Positions 2,359 through 19,201 of a DNA stretch of 32,000 nucleotides are shown one piece after another. The notes beneath the pieces are model-generated. The model did no database searches. It was not told where the DNA came from and saw only the letters and a program-made list of their open reading frames with translations. Made by a program: the position numbers and the translations under genes. Source of the DNA: Vibrio vulnificus CMCP6 (GTDB taxonomy: Bacteria > Pseudomonadota > Gammaproteobacteria > Enterobacterales > Vibrionaceae); assembly GCF_000039765.1 (NCBI RefSeq), contig NC_004460.2:30001-62000 (forward strand), given 5' to 3'. The first letter of the stretch is position 1. Every line of letters starts with the position of its first letter.

Positions 2359-4122
2359 CTAGTTTTGGTGAACAAAAGGCCCCGCAGTGGCGCTAGATGC
2401 CACATTGCCAGCAGAATCATAGACTTTCGAGGTGACGTAATACTCGTAAGCCACCCCTTTGGAACCGTTGAAATTATACGAATGTGACGTCACTTGCTCA
2501 TTTTTTACATACGTGCCGCAGCAAGAAAAGGTTACTTCCGTCGATGAGGCGACATCCGTATCCCAGCTGATTTGGAATTTCACCCCTTTGATGACACGGC
2601 TGCTGACATTGGAAATGGTGATATCGCCCCCCGTGCCAGAGCCCCCTCCATCACCTCCTCTGGCGCAGAGATCACTGCTGACGCCCACTTCATCCCAAGC
2701 GTCAAGGACGTTGGCCGAGTGGGTACTAGCAACGGCGTCAGTGGCGGCGCGCGCTAAACAGAAATCTGCATTGGGCGGCAGGGAGGTAAAACCGTTATAT
2801 ACGATTTGCGTTGCGGCATCCAAACCGATACCCGCCACATCGGTACCTGAGGCAAATTGTCCATCAGAATTTTGCCCGCCATTGACTAATAAGTAATACC
2901 AGTGGTTGATGATGCCACTGTTGATGTGCACACCACCATTGTCGCCAGTGCCTGTGTATCGTTCATTGTAATGAGAGGGATCGCCATCTTCTCCTGGATC
3001 AGCCATATTGCGGATGCCGTTTGAGTTTGGCGTGATGTCTTCACCGATGGTCCAGTTGCCACTGCCATAATAAAACTCAATGTTGGTGCCCATGATGTCG
3101 GAAAACGCTTCATTGAGTGCACCAGATTCATTTTGGTAAATCAGATCGCTGGTTGCGTCGGTCAATCCGTGTGAAAGTTCGTGTCCCACCACATCTAAAT
3201 CACCGGATAAATTAATGAAGGAGATGCCGTCTCCATCTCCGTAAGCCATTTGATAGCCATTCCAATAGGCGTTGTTATAGTTGCGTTTAACATGAGCGGT
3301 TGACACCATCCCCTGCGAATAGTGATTTAGCCAGTTGAATTGCAGCACGCTCAAAAAGTAACTGTCAGTCACATTGGCAAAGAAATGGGCATCGACCATA
3401 GCCGCTTGGCCAGGGGAAGTGCGGCCAGGTTCCACCCACTGATCATCACTATCCGTGGCCAGATCTCCGGGTAATCGACTGCGGCCGCCCGCATCGTAGG
3501 TAGAAAGGCGACCATTTGCAGAAACCATTTCGAAATTGCCGCGATTAAATGTGGTCAGCCCGGAAAGGTCTTTGCTATCCCCATGAACGCCCGTTCCGCT
3601 GCCAGTGGTTAACCCGTCATAAGCATTGAGCACTTCGCCAGTTTCGGCATCAATCCAATAGTGCCAACGGCTGTCAGCACGTTGATTTTCTACGATATAA
3701 AAGAACAGTCCATTGGAAGGGTTAATAAACAGGTTAGTCGTCCACCGTCCATGGCCACCAATTTTCATCATCACGATGCCTTTGGCCGTTTCGGCTTTCA
3801 GTTTGACGGAATTACTTGAGAGTAAATGGTCATAGCGACGACCAATCACCGCGACAACATCGCCACTGGCCGCCGTGATGAGACTGATTTCTCCGCCAAA
3901 TACAATGGCATTTTGAAAGTGCTGCTGAAAGCGCTGTGTTTCCATTCCGGAATGACCAAGCGCAAAGCGTTTCACCAAGGTGGCGTTGTCTGGAAGGATA
4001 AAGTTTTTCGCTTGAAGACCTTTCAAGCTAGGACTTGGATGCGCGTTGGGACCATTTGCTGCCATGCTTAAAGGAGCGGCTGCGAGCAGGCAAGTGGCAA
4101 TGATGGTGGTTTTGAAAGTCAT
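2359..4122 (-). CDS. Secreted M4 (thermolysin-like) zinc metalloprotease precursor with a Gly-rich linker and a C-terminal FN3-like beta domain
   Basis: Contains HEXXH (VVGHELSHGLTD) plus the downstream Glu ligand motif (GALNEAFSDIMG) typical of M4. I place the start at ATG 4122 (MTFKTTIIATCLLAAAPLSMAANG, a signal peptide) because GGAGG lies 5 nt upstream; the longer ORF to 4185 lacks this. The C-terminus is GGDGGGSGTGG followed by ITISNVSS...ISWDTDVASSTEVTF.... Confidence 0.85.
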   Translation of the reverse strand: MTFKTTIIATCLLAAAPLSMAANGPNAHPSPSLKGLQAKNFILPDNATLVKRFALGHSGMETQRFQQHFQNAIVFGGEISLITAASGDVVAVIGRRYDHLLSSNSVKLKAETAKGIVMMKIGGHGRWTTNLFINPSNGLFFYIVENQRADSRWHYWIDAETGEVLNAYDGLTTGSGTGVHGDSKDLSGLTTFNRGNFEMVSANGRLSTYDAGGRSRLPGDLATDSDDQWVEPGRTSPGQAAMVDAHFFANVTDSYFLSVLQFNWLNHYSQGMVSTAHVKRNYNNAYWNGYQMAYGDGDGISFINLSGDLDVVGHELSHGLTDATSDLIYQNESGALNEAFSDIMGTNIEFYYGSGNWTIGEDITPNSNGIRNMADPGEDGDPSHYNERYTGTGDNGGVHINSGIINHWYYLLVNGGQNSDGQFASGTDVAGIGLDAATQIVYNGFTSLPPNADFCLARAATDAVASTHSANVLDAWDEVGVSSDLCARGGDGGGSGTGGDITISNVSSRVIKGVKFQISWDTDVASSTEVTFSCCGTYVKNEQVTSHSYNFNGSKGVAYEYYVTSKVYDSAGNVASSATAGPFVHQN

Positions 4123-4585
4123 GAACGCCTCCAAAGTGAAGTCCATTTTGTTCCCACCATAGGATTGCAAAACTGCGCACTTCATGACTGTGTGAGAACT
4201 TGCTATTTATGAGTTTGTCACTAAAGATAAGTGTAGGCAGGAAAAGGGCTGCCATCAAACCACATCACGGAATTGATAATAATTTATCTGAATAATGAAA
4301 TGGATATATTGTTAAATGTGTTATTTATGAGACGGATAGATGACAAGGATTGATGTGATTAATAAAAGCACTATAATCATGGCAAATTTTAATAAGATGT
4401 CCCATAAATCAGTTTGCTCTACAAATCGCCTTGGTGAAGAATTACTTGCTTAATGTAGAGTTAAAACAAGGAAGTCATTTTTAGACGTCTTAATCAACCG
4501 AAATAACAAGTTGGCTTGTATTGTGTATTTGGACTGATTGAGGTTTCACGTTTTGTTTTCTGTATCAAACTCTTTTATTTCCTCT

Positions 4586-9533: not shown

Positions 9534-9628
9534 CGGTTATCAGTGATTGAGAACCGAACACGATGCAGGTACATTAGTGCCAGCGAACTATTTTTCCGTT
9601 GTATTGAGTGGTAGAGGAAGAGACCAAG

Positions 9629-10341
9629 ATGCCTGAAACATCTGTATTGTTAGCGGTTTTTTTGATTTTTCTTGGCTCGTTTGTGCAAACAGCAATTGGC
9701 TTTGGTTTGGCTATTGTGTCGGCACCCTTGCTGATTATGGTTGCTCCAGAATACGTGCCTGCGCCTATCTGTCTAGTGGCACTGTTTATTTCCATTCTCA
9801 ATGCGTTGAAGCACAAAAGCAGTGTAGAAATTGGCGGCCTAAAAATGGCGTTGATCGGTCGAGTGCCAGGCTCGATTGCAGGCGGGGCTTTATTGGTATT
9901 GGTCAGCACCAATGTATTGGCCTTGTGGATCGGCATACTGGTATTGTTTGCTTGGCGGTAAGTTTGCTGCCATTTCGCATCGAACCTACTCCCATGCGTA
10001 TGACGATCGCTGGTTTCTTCTCTGGCTTGTTTGGCACTAGTTCTGGGATTGGTGGGCCACCAATGGCATTACTGCTGCAGCATCAAGAAGCCAATCAACT
10101 GCGTGGCAATCTTTCGGCCTTTTTCGTGTTTAGTTCGTTGATCTCCTTAGCGATCCAAATTCCCGCGGGCTTTTTCACGCTATACCATCTCAAAATCACG
10201 CTTCCTTTAATTCCAGCGGCTTGGCTGGGTTACAAACTGGCTCTATTAACAACGCGCAGTTTACCCAAGGAAAAGATCCGAATCGGTGCCTTATCTTTGT
10301 GTTGCATTAGTGGCATTGGGGCAGTTTGGCAAAGTTTTTAA
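9629..10341 (+). pseudogene. TauE/SafE (TSUP) family anion exporter, interrupted by a frameshift (or a sequencing error)
   Basis: Two overlapping ORFs (9608-9961 and 9925-10341) together encode one TSUP-like protein (FVQTAIGFGLAIVSAPLL... then ...FGTSSGIGGPPMALLL...). The span is 713 nt. Adding one base near 9945-9952 (TTTGCTTGG) gives 237 aa. Confidence 0.75.
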
Positions 10342-14284: not shown

Positions 14285-15742
14285 TTACAGTTTGTCCCAC
14301 GCCATTTGCCAGTGTGAGCCAGTACCCGGCTGGTATTGAGTTGCGGTTGGTGTCCATTGAACACAGTAACCAGAGTATGGGAATGGCTTACATTGGTAGA
14401 TCGCACCGTCGCTGGCGAGCACTTTGGTGTCCGCCGTGTATGAGCTCAAGCCATCTGGAAAGACAAAGTCGTAATCATCACTTGGCGGTGGTGTTTGCGT
14501 TTCCGTCAGCATGAAGTCAGACGTTTGCTGCTTTTGCAGCGTGCCGTCTTTGTCTAGGACTTTGGTTACCAACATATGGTGGCCTGCTTCTGATTTGCTT
14601 AATGTCATGCTGACCGCTTTGTTCTCACCGTCTGTCATTGCAACCGTTTCAAAAGCAAGCGGCTCTTTGTGGTGGTTATAGATGGTCAGTTCCGTCGTAA
14701 TATCGCCAGTTGCTTGTAAGCCTAAATCGAGCGTTACAGGCGCATCACCAATTTGATACTCAGAGGCCAAACCCGATAGGGTGACGTCGTACTCAGGTGC
14801 AGGCGTTTCAATTTTGTAGCCGATCTCGACACGCTGCAGGTTGCTGCCAGACTTAAGGAAAATTGGGTTAGTACCATAAACCGGAACGAACTGATTTTGC
14901 TCGTTGAGCTGGCCTGCTGCGATCTCGCTTTGGGTTTGGTTAATTTTCACCGCTAGAGCGTGTGACCAATTGTTTGCTACCGTCAACGCGTCGCTGTCGA
15001 TCGCCAGTTCTGTCGTGTAGGCTGGATTCTCCCCCGCGAGATCAAATACGCGTGTAAAGACGGTGTCACCGACATTGAGGTTCATGGTTGGAATGATCTG
15101 GCCGCCTTGTTGCCAATCTGGCAGAGCAGGGCCATCGCCATCGAATTTGACATCAATGACATTGTAGAAAGAGGCGGCGGTGTCACCCACATCCCAAACC
15201 GCCAAAATCACTTGGTAACCTTCGCGTTCAGGTACATTACATGTGTGGCTAACGCGCTTCGGCGGTTGAACCATGCCACCGTCCACGACGCAGAAAGGGG
15301 TGAGATCGAATGAGGCGCGGGCAAGTGGTTGATTTGGATTCCAATCTGGTTTGGTGATGTAATATTTCCAATCTTTGGTCACGTGATTGGCGGTAAAGGT
15401 CCACTCAAAGTTTTGCGCACCGGCTTGAATCGGGCGTTTTACCCAGCGGTCTGCGGTTTGCTCATCAAGTGCGTTGGCTAACGCGCTCTCGGCGCTGGCA
15501 ATTTTGCCATCACGCGGACCGGACGCGGGGAAGCCATCTGGCCCTTCAACGCTTTGCGGTTCATATTGAATTGCGCCACAGTTGGTGTTTTTCTCTCCAG
15601 TTGACGCAGCGAACTTACACAGTGTCACACGAGCTTCTGCGACACCATTTTCCACTGCAGAAACATAACCATGGCTCATTGCGGTTCCGCTTACGACGGA
15701 TAGAGCAATGGCCAGTAAGGTTTTTTGCGGTTGTTTTTTCAT
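14285..15742 (-). CDS. gbpA: GbpA, N-acetylglucosamine/chitin-binding colonisation factor (AA10 lytic polysaccharide monooxygenase, four-domain)
   Basis: 485 aa. The signal peptide is followed by [13 protein letters not shown]..., the mature N-terminal His of AA10. Long colinear similarity to V. cholerae GbpA as I recall it includes the C-terminal chitin-binding domain ([20 protein letters not shown]...[16 protein letters not shown]). Confidence 0.92.
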
Positions 15743-15877: not shown

Positions 15878-15972
15878 GAGAGCGGCGGCCCCGCTATCTT
15901 GGGTATGATAAAAATACCGACAGACCGGAAGCTTTGCGTCCCATCTTTTCAGAAGGTTTGCCTATGTGTGAT
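15878..15972 (-). promoter_or_regulatory. c-di-GMP-I (GEMM-I) riboswitch aptamer in the gbpA 5' leader
   Basis: Minus strand reads CACACAUAGGCAAACCUUCUGAAAAGAUGGGACGCAAAGCUUCCGGUCUGUCGGUAUUUUUAUCAUACCCAAGAUAGCGGGGCCGCC. It carries the GEMM-I signatures GGCAAACC, a GAAA tetraloop, GGGACGCAAAGC, CCGG and AUAGCGGGG in the right order and spacing. The aptamer ends about 135 nt upstream of the gbpA ATG. A GEMM-I element (Vc1) is known upstream of V. cholerae gbpA. Confidence 0.85.
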
Positions 15973-17988: not shown

Positions 17989-18303
17989 ATGACAGCACCA
18001 ACCAAAATGACTTTTTTCTCACGTTTTGAAGCAGACATTCTTGCAGGCAAGAAAACCATCACAATTCGCGACGAGTCAGAAAAGGACTATCAACCAGGAA
18101 CCACCGTTGAAGTCTCAACACTAGAGGAAGGGCGTGTTTTCTGCCAACTGAAAATCTTAAGCGTGGAACCTATAGCGTTCTCGGCGTTGAACGAGTTTCA
18201 TGCAGAGCAAGAAAACATGACGCTGGAAACGTTGAAAGAAGTCATTCAAGAAATTTACCCTGGGATAGAGCAGTTGTACGTCATCCAATATCAGCGAGTA
18301 TAG
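17989..18303 (+). CDS. yqfB: YqfB-like ASCH-domain protein (N4-acetylcytidine amidohydrolase family)
   Basis: 104 aa from ATG 17989. It is strongly colinear with E. coli YqfB as recalled (TFFSRFEADILAGKKTITIRDESE...HAEQENMTL..LKEVI..IYPG). The upstream extension to 17932 is not homologous. Confidence 0.85.
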   Translation: MTAPTKMTFFSRFEADILAGKKTITIRDESEKDYQPGTTVEVSTLEEGRVFCQLKILSVEPIAFSALNEFHAEQENMTLETLKEVIQEIYPGIEQLYVIQYQRV

Positions 18304-18323
18304 CTTGTTGAACTTCGCGGTAA

Positions 18324-18357
18324 TTGCATAATGCAAATCTGTTTTTGCAATTTGCAT
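18324..18357 (+). promoter_or_regulatory. Two LuxO-type upstream activator sites for the qrr promoter
   Basis: TTGCATAATGCAA (18324-18336) and TTGCAATTTGCAT (18345-18357) both fit TTGCA-N3-TGCAA. They lie about 125-155 nt upstream of the predicted qrr start. Confidence 0.75.
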
Positions 18358-18453
18358 TATATTGGCTTGGTTTATCGACCAATATGAACCTTGTTTATCT
18401 GCATTTTGGTTAAAAATGTAGCAAATAATAGGGTTGGTGTACGTTTTTAAAGT

Positions 18454-18469
18454 TGGCACGCTTTCTGCT
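18454..18469 (+). promoter_or_regulatory. Sigma-54 (-24/-12) promoter of qrr
   Basis: TGGCACG-CTTT-CTGCT compares with the consensus TGGCACG-N4-TTGCW. GG at 18455-56 and GC at 18467-68 place the start at about 18480 (UGACCC...). Confidence 0.75.
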
Positions 18470-18479
18470 TTAATAAGAT

Positions 18480-18588
18480 TGACCCTTTTTAAGCCGAGGG
18501 TCACCTAGCCAACTGACGTTGTTAGTGAACCTGATTGTTCACAAATATATACAGCCAATCACCTCTTATTGTGATTGGCTTTTTTTTT
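18480..18588 (+). ncRNA. qrr: Qrr quorum-regulatory sRNA (Hfq-dependent, LuxO/sigma-54 controlled)
   Basis: TGACCCTTTTTAAGCCGAGGGTCACCTAGCCAACTGACGTTGTTAGTGAACCTGATTGTTCACAAATATATACAGCCAATCACCTCTTATTGTGATTGGC plus T8. It contains the Qrr core GGTCACCTAGCCAACTGACGTTGTTAGTGAA. There are three hairpins (TGACCCT/AGGGTCA, GTGAAC/GTTCAC, AGCCAATCAC/GTGATTGGCT) and a T8 terminator tail. No ORF explains the region. Confidence 0.9.
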
Positions 18589-18661
18589 ATTCTCAATGTC
18601 ACCCAAATGGTTTGGTGCACAGTTTGGCGCAAACATTAGCTTGTTTGTGATGAGGTACTTC

Positions 18662-19201
18662 ATGAAACGTTGCTGTTTAACAACGCTTACTGCAGGCGCA
18701 TTATGTGCTGCGCCTGTTTATGCTCAAGGTTCTAAAGGGTGGGAGACGTTTAGTGACATCGGAGCGTACGGCTTGGTCGCCACCGCAGCGGCAGTACCAC
18801 TCTATAAAGACGATTGGCAAGGCTTTTGGCAAGCAGGGTTGAGTATTGGCACCGCGTCTGCCGTCGGTCTATTGGGAAAAGTGACCATTGAAGAAGAAAG
18901 GCCGGATAAATCAGGTTTTGATAGCTTTCCCTCTAATCATACCGCCAATGCATTTGCTTCCGCGACGACGCTGCAAATTCGCTACGGTTGGCAGGCGGGT
19001 TTGCCTGCCTACACGATTGCAACCTTGGTTGGCGTGGGGAGAGTGGAGGCTAAGAGGCACTACTGGCGTGATGTGATCGCAGGTGCTGCTTTAGGCACGC
19101 TGTCAGCGTGGATCTTTACTGACGCCTACGATGAAAATATCCAAGTGCTGCCATGGGTGAGCCATGATGGCGCAGGTATCCATATTGCTTATCAGTTCTA
19201 A
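18662..19201 (+). CDS. PAP2-family (type 2 phosphatidic acid/lipid phosphatase) exported protein
   Basis: ATG at 18662 with GAGG upstream, and signal peptide MKRCCLTTLTAGALCAAPVYA. PAP2 motifs are present: K(x6)RP (KVTIEEERP), PSNH, and GRVEAKRHYWRD (SRx5Hx3D-like). Confidence 0.8.
   Translation: MKRCCLTTLTAGALCAAPVYAQGSKGWETFSDIGAYGLVATAAAVPLYKDDWQGFWQAGLSIGTASAVGLLGKVTIEEERPDKSGFDSFPSNHTANAFASATTLQIRYGWQAGLPAYTIATLVGVGRVEAKRHYWRDVIAGAALGTLSAWIFTDAYDENIQVLPWVSHDGAGIHIAYQF

Follow-up and report, generated by a model that had tools for sequence, protein, structure and literature searches.

A PAP2-linked small RNA gene on Vibrio vulnificus chromosome II that is very probably the orthologue of qrr5

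V. cholerae carries four Qrr copies that act redundantly and follow the same sigma-54, LuxO and Hfq logic that is set out below for the V. vulnificus gene, and the core of these RNAs pairs with the luxR/smcR, luxO and aphA mRNAs. Qrr1-4 of V. cholerae, reportedly described by Lenz et al. in 2004, are said to be the founding members of the RNA family RF00378. A further copy, Qrr5, has been reported in the Harveyi, Parahaemolyticus and Vulnificus groups but not in the Cholerae group (PMC3262071). For V. harveyi/campbellii, Qrr5 is credited to Tu and Bassler (2007) where PMC3262071 and bioRxiv 10.1101/2020.03.31.019307 cite that work. In V. harveyi BB120, qrr5 was reported to be repressed under normal growth conditions (PMC3262071), and the laboratory activity of an orthologous copy elsewhere is therefore not guaranteed. 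Tague et al. 2021 (PMC8630636) and Zha et al. 2022 (PMC9610228) described qrr5 of V. parahaemolyticus; the locus, as identified below through published primers, lies directly upstream of a gene for a PAP2-family phosphatase, with an EamA gene farther upstream. Five V. vulnificus qrr genes have been published, Qrr1 on chromosome I and Qrr2-5 on chromosome II, with RNA-seq reads for all five (PMC10840491, PMC8764119); an earlier note on the DNA analysed here, which had spoken of a multi-Qrr species and of no novel biology, agrees with that literature. A V. vulnificus plasmid and temperate phages of about 40 kb carry Qrr genes too, among the phages Aliivibrio phage vB_Alvi_H905 and its relatives in IMG/VR.

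The locus described here lies in a 32,000-nucleotide stretch of V. vulnificus chromosome II (the window), between yqfB and a PAP2 gene. With the yqfB stop at 18303 and PAP2 start alternatives at 18650 or 18662, the gap measures 346-358 bp, and its only ORFs are antisense or shorter than 45 aa, much as the earlier note had put it (about 360 bp, no credible ORF). The following features were placed in and around the gap; promoter positions are relative to U18480.

17989-18303, plus strand: yqfB (ASCH domain, N4-acetylcytidine amidohydrolase; PF04266, 78.7 bits), the upstream neighbour, outside the Qrr unit.
18324-18336, no strand assigned: distal LuxO-type dyad TTGCATAATGCAA, a perfect TTGCA-W3-TGCAA, centre at -150.
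18345-18357, no strand assigned: proximal LuxO-type dyad TTGCAATTTGCAT, with one mismatch (TGCAT), centre at -129.
18408-18414, plus strand: GGTTAAA, a conserved motif in the stretch that separates the dyads from the promoter, -72 to -66.
18454-18469, plus strand: sigma-54 promoter TGGCACGCTTTCTGCT, one mismatch to TGGCAC-N5-TTGCW.
18480-18588, plus strand: Qrr sRNA gene of 109 nt, a match to RF00378 and positional orthologue of Qrr5.
18480-18503, plus strand: stem-loop 1 (5' stem-loop), from the Rfam consensus structure and the minimum-free-energy fold.
18499-18529, plus strand: invariant core and seed GGTCACCTAGCCAACTGACGTTGTTAGTGAA, read directly from the letters.
18525-18542, plus strand: stem-loop 3, GUGAAC/GUUCAC, from the Rfam structure and the fold.
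18553-18588, plus strand: Rho-independent terminator with a 10-bp stem, 8-nt loop and U8, from the fold and a terminator scan.
18662-19201, plus strand: PAP2-family phosphatase gene (Pfam PF01569), the downstream neighbour.

The covariance search that the earlier note had proposed as the test of its reading returned 115.9 bits for RF00378 (Qrr) at 18480-18588 on the plus strand, against a gathering score of 50, with model positions 1-108 of 108 aligned (E = 4.6e-22). Other V. vulnificus assemblies contain an identical or nearly identical Qrr (115.9 bits at locus L001, 115.1 bits at L002), and RNA, promoter and dyads are invariant among the assemblies of this species. The Qrr core of about 30 nt that the earlier note had recognized (CCUAGCCAACUGACGUUGUUAGUGAA plus flanks) is exact at 18499-18529, and its 31 nt are unchanged in all six aligned Qrr sequences. 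A 26-nt version of the core occurs once in the window (0 expected from shuffles), and neither RF00378 nor core scans found a second Qrr copy or a degenerate core there. The predicted fold of 18480-18588 has four hairpins, the family arrangement that had been suggested from two hairpins flanking the core, with a free energy of -35.1 kcal/mol (z = -5.83; none of 200 shuffles as stable); few non-canonical pairs appear in the Rfam structure alignment. All six pairs of stem-loop 3 are preserved in four species. The strong plus-strand terminator claimed earlier is present, as a stem-loop at 18553-18580 followed by T8 at 18581-18588, and its stem is likewise preserved in the four species with a single change of U-A to U-G. 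The four orthologues resemble each other too closely for covariation to be informative, and no compensatory base-pair changes were found among them. The sRNA retains intact pairing regions, and the target genes lie outside the window.

Stem-loop 1 can be equated with region I, the aphA-pairing stretch that Qrr1 lacks (PMC3262071); this placement is our own, and PMC3262071 does not assign region I to a particular stem-loop. The window contains no luxO, and none of its large ORFs has a sigma-54 activator domain, in keeping with the earlier statement that the locus, flanked by yqfB and PAP2, does not adjoin luxO. The complete stem-loop at 18480-18503 and the position away from luxO would thus make the gene a copy of the Qrr2-5 type, as the earlier note had proposed; synteny and published primers, discussed below, sharpen this to the orthologue of V. 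parahaemolyticus qrr5. The upstream neighbour is yqfB by an NCBIfam equivalog match as well (NF003443, 165.9 bits against a cut-off of 93). PAP2 shares 97% identity with a V. vulnificus protein, and 22 contigs encode PAP2 in exactly this form.

The sigma-54 box TGGCACGCTTTCTGCT places GG at -25/-24 and GC at -13/-12, in register with the RNA 5' end as had been claimed, and the register is the same in V. vulnificus, V. parahaemolyticus, V. campbellii and Vibrio sp. CAU 1672. Both dyads align with dyads in the other three species, and the centre-to-centre spacing is 21 bp in all four. TTGCA-W3-TGCAA is the consensus for LuxO sites (PMC11443567), and from their sequences the two dyads are putative LuxO binding sites. 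The earlier note had described both as perfect and placed them at about -155 and -125; the first is indeed perfect, the second carries the mismatch in TTGCAATTTGCAT, and the measured centres are -150 and -129. Counted over the window, neither LuxO-like sites (2 found, 3.7 expected) nor sigma-54-like sites (2 found, 1.9 expected) exceed the chance level, and these motifs owe their significance to their co-location, to lying exactly in register with the 5' end of the RNA and to their conservation at orthologous loci.

Between dyads and promoter, the motif G(G/A)TTAAA recurs at -62/-56 in V. parahaemolyticus and V. campbellii and at -61/-55 in Vibrio sp. CAU 1672, so that GGTTAAA stands 10-11 bp farther upstream in V. 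vulnificus than in these three. A DNA-bending protein or a regulator specific to qrr5 might bind there. Within 18304-18480, consensus matches to IHF and Fis boxes are at chance level, no convincing Fur box was seen (best consensus match 12/19), and no plus-strand sigma-70 promoter was found by scan. The best match to the SmcR/LuxR consensus is 14/20 at 18407-18428, where 0.28 matches as good or better are expected by chance, and it does not make a convincing box; a consensus scan of this kind is weak evidence. A LuxR/OpaR/SmcR feedback loop on qrr promoters has been reported for qrr2-4 only, with which this outcome is consistent.

The locus was compared with its counterparts in V. parahaemolyticus (L007/L008), V. 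campbellii DS40M4 (L009) and Vibrio sp. CAU 1672 (L094). All four species have the Qrr and the PAP2 orthologue on the same strand, the Qrr being 61-95 nt upstream, and a PAP2-linked Qrr is present in the window and at loci L001-L009, L094 and L098. Across the three other species, identity to V. vulnificus is 86-89% for the RNA, 58-77% for the promoter and 65-71% for the dyads, against 34-40% for the spacer and 10-41% for the flanks; these values clearly point to purifying selection on RNA, promoter and dyads relative to spacers. The EamA gene serves as an upstream anchor and is orthologous over its full length (59-61% identity), whereas the gene immediately upstream of the Qrr differs: yqfB in V. 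vulnificus, a MAPEG gene in V. parahaemolyticus and EamA itself in CAU 1672.

V. parahaemolyticus qrr5 encodes an RNA 89% identical to that of the window, with an identical core and the same sigma-54 register; both loci have two dyads 21 bp apart and an RNA of about 108-109 nt. The dyads at -150/-129 in V. vulnificus are 12 bp farther from +1 than those at -138/-117 in V. parahaemolyticus, GGTTAAA is 10 bp farther out, the perfect and the imperfect dyad are swapped, and the gene after PAP2 differs. The V. campbellii DS40M4 copy, which is compared here by its PAP2 linkage and not by a published qrr5 name, has 87% RNA identity and the same promoter architecture, but its -24 box is TGGCAT and each of its dyads has one mismatch. 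With V. cholerae Qrr1-4 the window gene shares RF00378, the invariant core and the four-stem-loop layout. The Cholerae clade has no positional counterpart: in V. mimicus and V. metoecus no Qrr was found upstream of the PAP2 orthologue, which has a different gene neighbourhood there. A check of position only found no Qrr upstream of PAP2 in V. harveyi DSM 19623, V. kyushuensis, V. mediterranei and two other Vibrio species, and the V. harveyi result means that Qrr-PAP2 linkage is not universal. An alignment search of genome contigs with PAP2 gave, among the matches listed, PAP2 proteins that for the most part were distant and belonged to other phyla; the informative Vibrio loci among them were two, those of V. 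harveyi DSM 19623 and V. kyushuensis, neither with a Qrr.

The paralogue was assigned by synteny and published primers, since similarity alone fails to separate Qrr5 from Qrr4. Assignment by sequence similarity was rejected; the best match in V. campbellii LJC015 is to a Qrr4-like locus that has no PAP2 beside it. At the PAP2-linked V. parahaemolyticus locus, the Qrr5F/Qrr5R primers of Tague et al. have their matches at 3589-3612 and 3804-3823 and bracket 235 bp, the published product size; together with PAP2 synteny this identifies the window gene as the positional orthologue of Qrr5, a name given experimentally in V. parahaemolyticus RIMD 2210633. The qrr2, qrr3 and qrr4 promoter (EMSA) primers (Zhang et al. 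2012, Tague et al. 2021) found no match at that locus, and the only other published primers that match it lie inside the conserved RNA body. The phyletic pattern reported for Qrr5 is matched here at the PAP2-linked position. We conclude that the qrr gene in the yqfB-PAP2 gap is very probably complete and functional and, by its position, orthologous to qrr5, a copy found only in the Harveyi/Vulnificus group. Most probably the locus is the fifth copy (Qrr5) of earlier descriptions, its number being taken from the V. parahaemolyticus position and not from V. vulnificus numbering.

Two readings would deny this identity. It is improbable that the gene, though a genuine Qrr, is the orthologue of another paralogue such as Qrr4, with its PAP2 linkage a coincidence of rearrangement. 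That reading draws on a whole-region megablast against V. campbellii LJC015 chromosome II, whose best place (87.7%) is the Qrr4-like locus with no PAP2 nearby; this locus contains the V. parahaemolyticus qrr4 primer-extension sequence CACATTGTTCACAAGTATAT, and the window RNA is about equally identical to it and to the PAP2-linked copies, with stem-loop 1 and core the same. The LJC015 copy departs from the window gene in its stem-loop 3 stem (GUGAAUAC...), its terminator foot ACCGCC and its promoter, which has a cluster of overlapping TTGCA/TGCAA repeats instead of two dyads 21 bp apart, whereas the window agrees with the PAP2-linked group in two short signatures, GUGAACC in stem-loop 3 and ACAGCC at the terminator foot. 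The dyad spacing and GGTTAAA common to the PAP2-linked promoters, the PAP2 and EamA anchors common to four species, the exact 235-bp qrr5 primer product beside the unmatched qrr2-4 promoter primers and the absence from the Cholerae clade all argue for Qrr5. The other reading, that there is no RNA gene and that the hairpin with its T-run terminates yqfB while the upstream motifs arose by chance, is effectively refuted. In its favor, no plus-strand terminator occurs between 18303 and 18553, which leaves yqfB without one of its own before that of the Qrr, and the LuxO-like and sigma-54-like motif counts taken alone are at chance level. Against it stand the full-length covariance-model match, 66 bits above threshold, the invariant 31-nt core and the recurrence of the Qrr upstream of PAP2 where the neighbour is MAPEG or EamA.

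The gene can be placed in the established Vibrio quorum-sensing pathway, from which we infer its dependence on LuxO, RpoN and Hfq, its targets and its conditions of expression. At low cell density, phosphorylated LuxO would bind the dyads at -150 and -129 and loop to sigma-54 RNA polymerase on the -24/-12 promoter to bring about the open complex. A transcript of about 108-109 nt would run from U18480 or G18481 to the U8 terminator. Its core, with Hfq, would pair with the mRNAs for SmcR (the LuxR/HapR homologue) and LuxO and repress them, and the core together with the 5' stem-loop region would activate aphA.

Two alternatives concern expression. An intact-looking but silent copy with no part in V. 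vulnificus quorum sensing, a prospect raised by the repression reported for BB120, is unlikely. Against it speak the clear purifying selection on RNA, promoter and dyads relative to spacers and their invariance among V. vulnificus assemblies, as well as V. vulnificus RNA-seq, in which an RNA called Qrr5 had a mean read depth of 376 in cells (PMC10840491). V. parahaemolyticus Qrr5 was reported to be infection-induced and to have phenotypes (PMC9610228), and a V. campbellii DS40M4 strain with qrr5 as its only qrr is dark, so that qrr5 of DS40M4 is active. It is very improbable that transcription comes mainly from an overlapping, RpoN-independent sigma-70 promoter, as in V. parahaemolyticus qrr2, whose dual promoter (-35 TTGAAA, -10 ATAATA; bioRxiv 10.1101/2021.07.01.450815) is the precedent. 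By eye, the A/T-rich TTTAATAAGAT just upstream of +1 and TTTAAA 17 bp further up could be read in this way. The scan of 18304-18480 described above found no such promoter on the plus strand, V. parahaemolyticus qrr1, qrr3, qrr4 and qrr5 have no sigma-70 promoter (Tague et al., bioRxiv 10.1101/2021.07.01.450815), and the sigma-54 elements are conserved where the candidate hexamers are not.

The conserved position also suggests a further, improbable interpretation, in which Qrr5 and PAP2 form a conserved two-gene module with control specific to Qrr5. Three observations suggest it: the Qrr keeps its place 61-95 nt upstream of PAP2 and its shared strand although the neighbours on either side vary; no sigma-70-like promoter was detected between the Qrr terminator and the PAP2 start; and G(G/A)TTAAA is present in all four promoters and displaced together with the dyads by about one helical turn (10-12 bp) in V. 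vulnificus. A factor that keeps V. harveyi qrr5 silent could act at this motif, and read-through of the terminator could couple PAP2, possibly a lipid or undecaprenyl-pyrophosphate phosphatase, to quorum sensing.

Taken together, the annotation of a Qrr gene is correct and useful, yet the gene was already known and is no discovery, and the knowledge of quorum sensing is unchanged by it. It is the main regulatory element of this stretch of V. vulnificus chromosome II, and annotation by ORFs only would miss it. Qrr5 orthology gives the gene a precise name and ties it to the least understood Qrr, one restricted to a subset of vibrios, and the four-species comparison provides a map for mutagenesis: the dyads at a fixed 21 bp, GGTTAAA and the one-turn displacement in V. 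vulnificus.

Scanning of the whole window with Rfam placed a Qrr match (RF00378) at 18480-18588 on the + strand, with a score of 115.9 bits over model positions 1-108 of 108 (E = 4.6e-22). The gathering score of the family is 50, and a score below it had been named beforehand, in an earlier note on this DNA, as grounds for abandoning the identification. The core and the terminator that the note had described, the latter a 10-bp stem followed by T8, were both located; the 31-nt core GGTCACCTAGCCAACTGACGTTGTTAGTGAA occupies 18499-18529. No second Qrr copy was detected in the window by the Rfam scan or by a core search. Shuffling gave 0 matches to the 26-nt core expected by chance, and the RNA fold is more stable than that of shuffled sequences (z = -5.83). 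The Rfam structure alignment and the minimum-free-energy fold are concordant for four stem-loops:

18480-18503, + strand, stem-loop 1 (Rfam structure alignment and minimum-free-energy fold)
18506-18524, + strand, stem-loop 2 (Rfam structure alignment and minimum-free-energy fold)
18525-18542, + strand, stem-loop 3 (Rfam structure alignment and minimum-free-energy fold)
18553-18580, + strand, terminator with a 10-bp stem and 8-nt loop, then T8/U8 (sequence and fold)

The gene shows every sequence-level hallmark of the Qrr family. The complete 5' stem-loop is taken to include region I, the aphA-pairing region, which Qrr1 lacks (PMC3262071).

The gene lies between the yqfB stop codon at 18303 and the PAP2 start at 18650 or 18662, a gap that had been described as devoid of credible ORFs; only an antisense ORF overlapping yqfB and ORFs of <45 aa were found there. 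The predicted sigma-54 promoter and two LuxO-type dyads were identified upstream of the RNA 5' end (U18480, from which positions are counted):

18454-18469, + strand, sigma-54 promoter motif TGGCACGCTTTCTGCT (motif scan)
18324-18336, distal dyad of the TTGCA-N3-TGCAA type, centre at -150
18345-18357, proximal dyad TTGCAATTTGCAT with one mismatch, centre at -129

The presence of two dyads had thus been correctly anticipated, but the second is an imperfect TTGCA-N3-TGCAA, and the centres differ from the approximate -155 and -125 that had been proposed. By count alone neither motif exceeds chance in the window (2 LuxO-type dyads vs 3.7 expected; 2 sigma-54 motifs vs 1.9 expected); they carry meaning because they occur together, are precisely in register with the 5' end of the RNA, and have been conserved in other species. 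Consensus scans of the control region for Fur, SmcR/LuxR, Fis, and IHF boxes gave nothing convincing, nor did a scan for a sigma-70 promoter overlapping the sigma-54 promoter. The result for LuxR-type boxes is consistent with published statements that LuxR/OpaR feedback targets qrr2-4 but leaves out qrr1 and qrr5 (PMC3323551).

The control region was compared among V. vulnificus, V. parahaemolyticus, V. campbellii, and Vibrio sp. CAU 1672. Each of them has a sigma-54 box with GG at -25/-24 and GC at -13/-12, and the two dyads are separated by exactly 21 bp centre to centre, corresponding to two helical turns. A G(G/A)TTAAA motif is located between the dyads and the sigma-54 promoter in each of the four PAP2-linked qrr promoters (18408-18414 in the window; -62/-55 in the V. 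parahaemolyticus L007, V. campbellii L009, and CAU 1672 L094 loci), and no known binding consensus was found to account for it. The V. vulnificus dyads are 12 bp further from +1 (-150/-129 vs -138/-117), and its G(G/A)TTAAA motif is 10 bp further out (-72 vs -62); the extra V. vulnificus DNA therefore amounts to about one helical turn, roughly preserving face-of-helix relations. The elements are invariant among V. vulnificus assemblies, except for one extra proximal-dyad mismatch in one strain.

Segment identities, with V. vulnificus as reference
RNA, 86-89%
sigma-54 promoter, 58-77%
dyads, 65-71%
spacer, 34-40%
flanks, 10-41%

These identities form a clear phylogenetic footprint, which marks the region as a functional unit.

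In order to assign the paralogue, PAP2-orthologue loci of other species were compared and scanned for Qrr above the Rfam threshold. A Qrr gene immediately precedes PAP2 and shares its strand in V. parahaemolyticus (L007/L008), V. campbellii DS40M4 (L009), CAU 1672 (L094), and one further assembly (L098). It is absent from this position in V. metoecus and V. mimicus, both of the Cholerae clade, and in V. harveyi DSM 19623, V. kyushuensis, V. mediterranei, and two further Vibrio species. The gene immediately 5' of Qrr differs among the loci (yqfB, a MAPEG gene, or EamA), and further 5' the loci keep an EamA transporter orthologue, with 59-61% identity across the full length. The Qrr5F/Qrr5R primers that Tague et al. 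used on the qrr5 regulatory region of V. parahaemolyticus (supplement, PMC8630636) match L007/L008 at 3589-3612 and 3804-3823, spanning exactly the published 235 bp; the published qrr2, qrr3, and qrr4 promoter-region primers have no match at this PAP2-linked locus. According to Tague et al., qrr1-4 sit at the same sites in both V. parahaemolyticus and V. cholerae, which fits the presence/absence pattern of the PAP2-linked Qrr. The published distribution of Qrr5, in Harveyi, Parahaemolyticus, and Vulnificus lineages but not in the Cholerae clade (PMC3262071), fits this pattern too.

An assignment by similarity alone was rejected: in a chromosome II record from V. campbellii, the best megablast match is Qrr4-like and has no PAP2 nearby, and only two short signatures, GUGAACC in stem-loop 3 and ACAGCC at the terminator foot, favour the PAP2-linked group. 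The distribution of PAP2-linked Qrr genes, the EamA anchor, the 235-bp primer span, and the published location pattern together make it very probable that the window gene is the positional orthologue of qrr5, and it occupies the position expected of Qrr5. No large ORF of the window contains a sigma-54 activator domain of the LuxO type, so the gene is not the luxO-linked qrr1. The proposed non-adjacency to luxO and membership among the dispersed Qrr2-5-type paralogues are borne out by this result, by the complete 5' stem-loop, and by the qrr5 position.

On chromosome 2 of V. harveyi DSM 19623 (L014, ~3850-4000), similarity to V. campbellii resumes just past the expected end of the Qrr terminator, and an unrelated gene with its own terminator lies upstream of that point. 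These two features place a rearrangement breakpoint at the Qrr 3' end, and in this strain qrr5 must be elsewhere or lost. Guanidine-II (mini-ykkC) riboswitches were observed at L009 6294-6340 (+), L014 6539-6585 (+), and L098 2469-2515 (+); in L009 and L098 they lie 5' of an SMR-family transporter gene two genes downstream of PAP2, a known arrangement that is absent from the window.

The upstream gene yqfB encodes an N4-acetylcytidine amidohydrolase (NCBIfam equivalog, 165.9 bits; cut-off 93). Transcripts of yqfB probably stop at the Qrr terminator as well, since a terminator scan found none belonging to yqfB before 18553. The PAP2 protein encoded downstream shares 97% identity with a V. vulnificus cluster representative, and the exact protein occurs in 22 assembled contigs. 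Other genes near Qrr in the window include gbpA, an M4 metalloprotease gene, and a DcuC transporter gene. The gbpA gene (14285-15742, -; GbpA equivalog, 763.6 bits) has a c-di-GMP-I class riboswitch in its leader (15880-15971, -), and V. cholerae gbpA is also preceded by an equivalent riboswitch, Vc1. The top model, the GGC variant family RF03167, barely passes (59.8 bits vs 59), and ligand-pocket differences may merit a look. A TauE/SafE sulfite-exporter gene is apparently split into overlapping ORFs in different frames (9608-9961, +, and 9925-10341, +), which match the intact V. parahaemolyticus protein at residues 4-109 and 112-236 with ~82% identity; either the gene is a frameshift pseudogene, or the sequence contains an error. 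The M4 (thermolysin-type) metalloprotease (608 aa; 2359-4185, -) is encoded ~14 kb from Qrr, and an M4 protease gene lies two genes downstream of Qrr5-PAP2 in V. parahaemolyticus and CAU 1672, which suggests that the window is a rearranged form of one shared ancestral neighbourhood. The V. vulnificus elastase VvpE, a candidate identity for this protease, is of about this size and SmcR-regulated.

Following the established Vibrio pathway, LuxO-P would bind the dyads at low cell density and activate sigma-54 RNA polymerase at the -24/-12 promoter. The product would be a Qrr of ~109 nt that, together with Hfq, represses smcR and luxO mRNAs and activates aphA. All five V. vulnificus qrr genes are reported to be repressed by Fur-iron (PMC8764119, citing Wen et al. 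2016). V. harveyi qrr5 is silent in normal growth and functional when expressed (PMC3262071), V. parahaemolyticus Qrr5 is reported to be infection-induced (PMC9610228), and RNA-seq reads in V. vulnificus are reported for five RNAs, Qrr1-5, of which Qrr2-5 lie on chromosome II (PMC10840491). The tight same-strand linkage, the failure to detect a promoter between Qrr and PAP2, and the conserved GGTTAAA prompt the idea of Qrr5-specific regulation with PAP2 expression coupled to quorum sensing, which we regard as highly doubtful.

Qrr genes were also found on mobile elements. Plasmid pFORC54 of V. vulnificus FORC_054 (NZ_CP019123.1, 32.6 kb) carries a full Qrr (L101 2536-2639, +; 93.9 bits, Rfam) that adjoins umuDC; its -24 box is TTGGCACG, its -12 region (TTGAT) is atypical, and LuxO-like dyads are present as well. 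Two more plasmids match, one of 68 kb from V. parahaemolyticus and one of 220 kb from V. tritonius. In four ~40-kb IMG/VR viral contigs, a Qrr that includes the full 26-nt core exceeds the Rfam threshold (62-75 bits):

L168, 7674-7770, - strand, Qrr (Rfam)
L135, 1090-1182, - strand, Qrr (Rfam)
L138, 5833-5925, - strand, Qrr (Rfam)
L144, 1752-1848, + strand, Qrr (Rfam)

The L168 gene has a late transcriptional regulator (phrog_536) on one side and genes for endolysin, spanin, and terminase on the other, and an integrase is encoded upstream; by analogy, this slot may correspond to the pR'-tR' leader slot of lambdoid phages. A weaker Qrr-like gene (L100 2487-2574, +; 43 bits, E = 1e-6) occupies this slot, upstream of lysozyme, in Aliivibrio phage vB_Alvi_H905 (PP986400.1). 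The Qrr-bearing phages are temperate, and no publication on Qrr genes of phages came up in a literature search. If a phage produced a Qrr mimic, it could shift the host to the low-cell-density state, and the mobile-element Qrr genes are a more novel lead than the Qrr gene of the window itself.

The finding on the window gene is already known, because the Qrr family, the five-gene set of V. vulnificus (PMC10840491, PMC8764119), and V. vulnificus Qrr5 have all been published, as was expected of a gene described beforehand as not novel and as belonging to a multi-Qrr species. It is of value for annotation and for the map it gives of qrr5 control sequences across four species.
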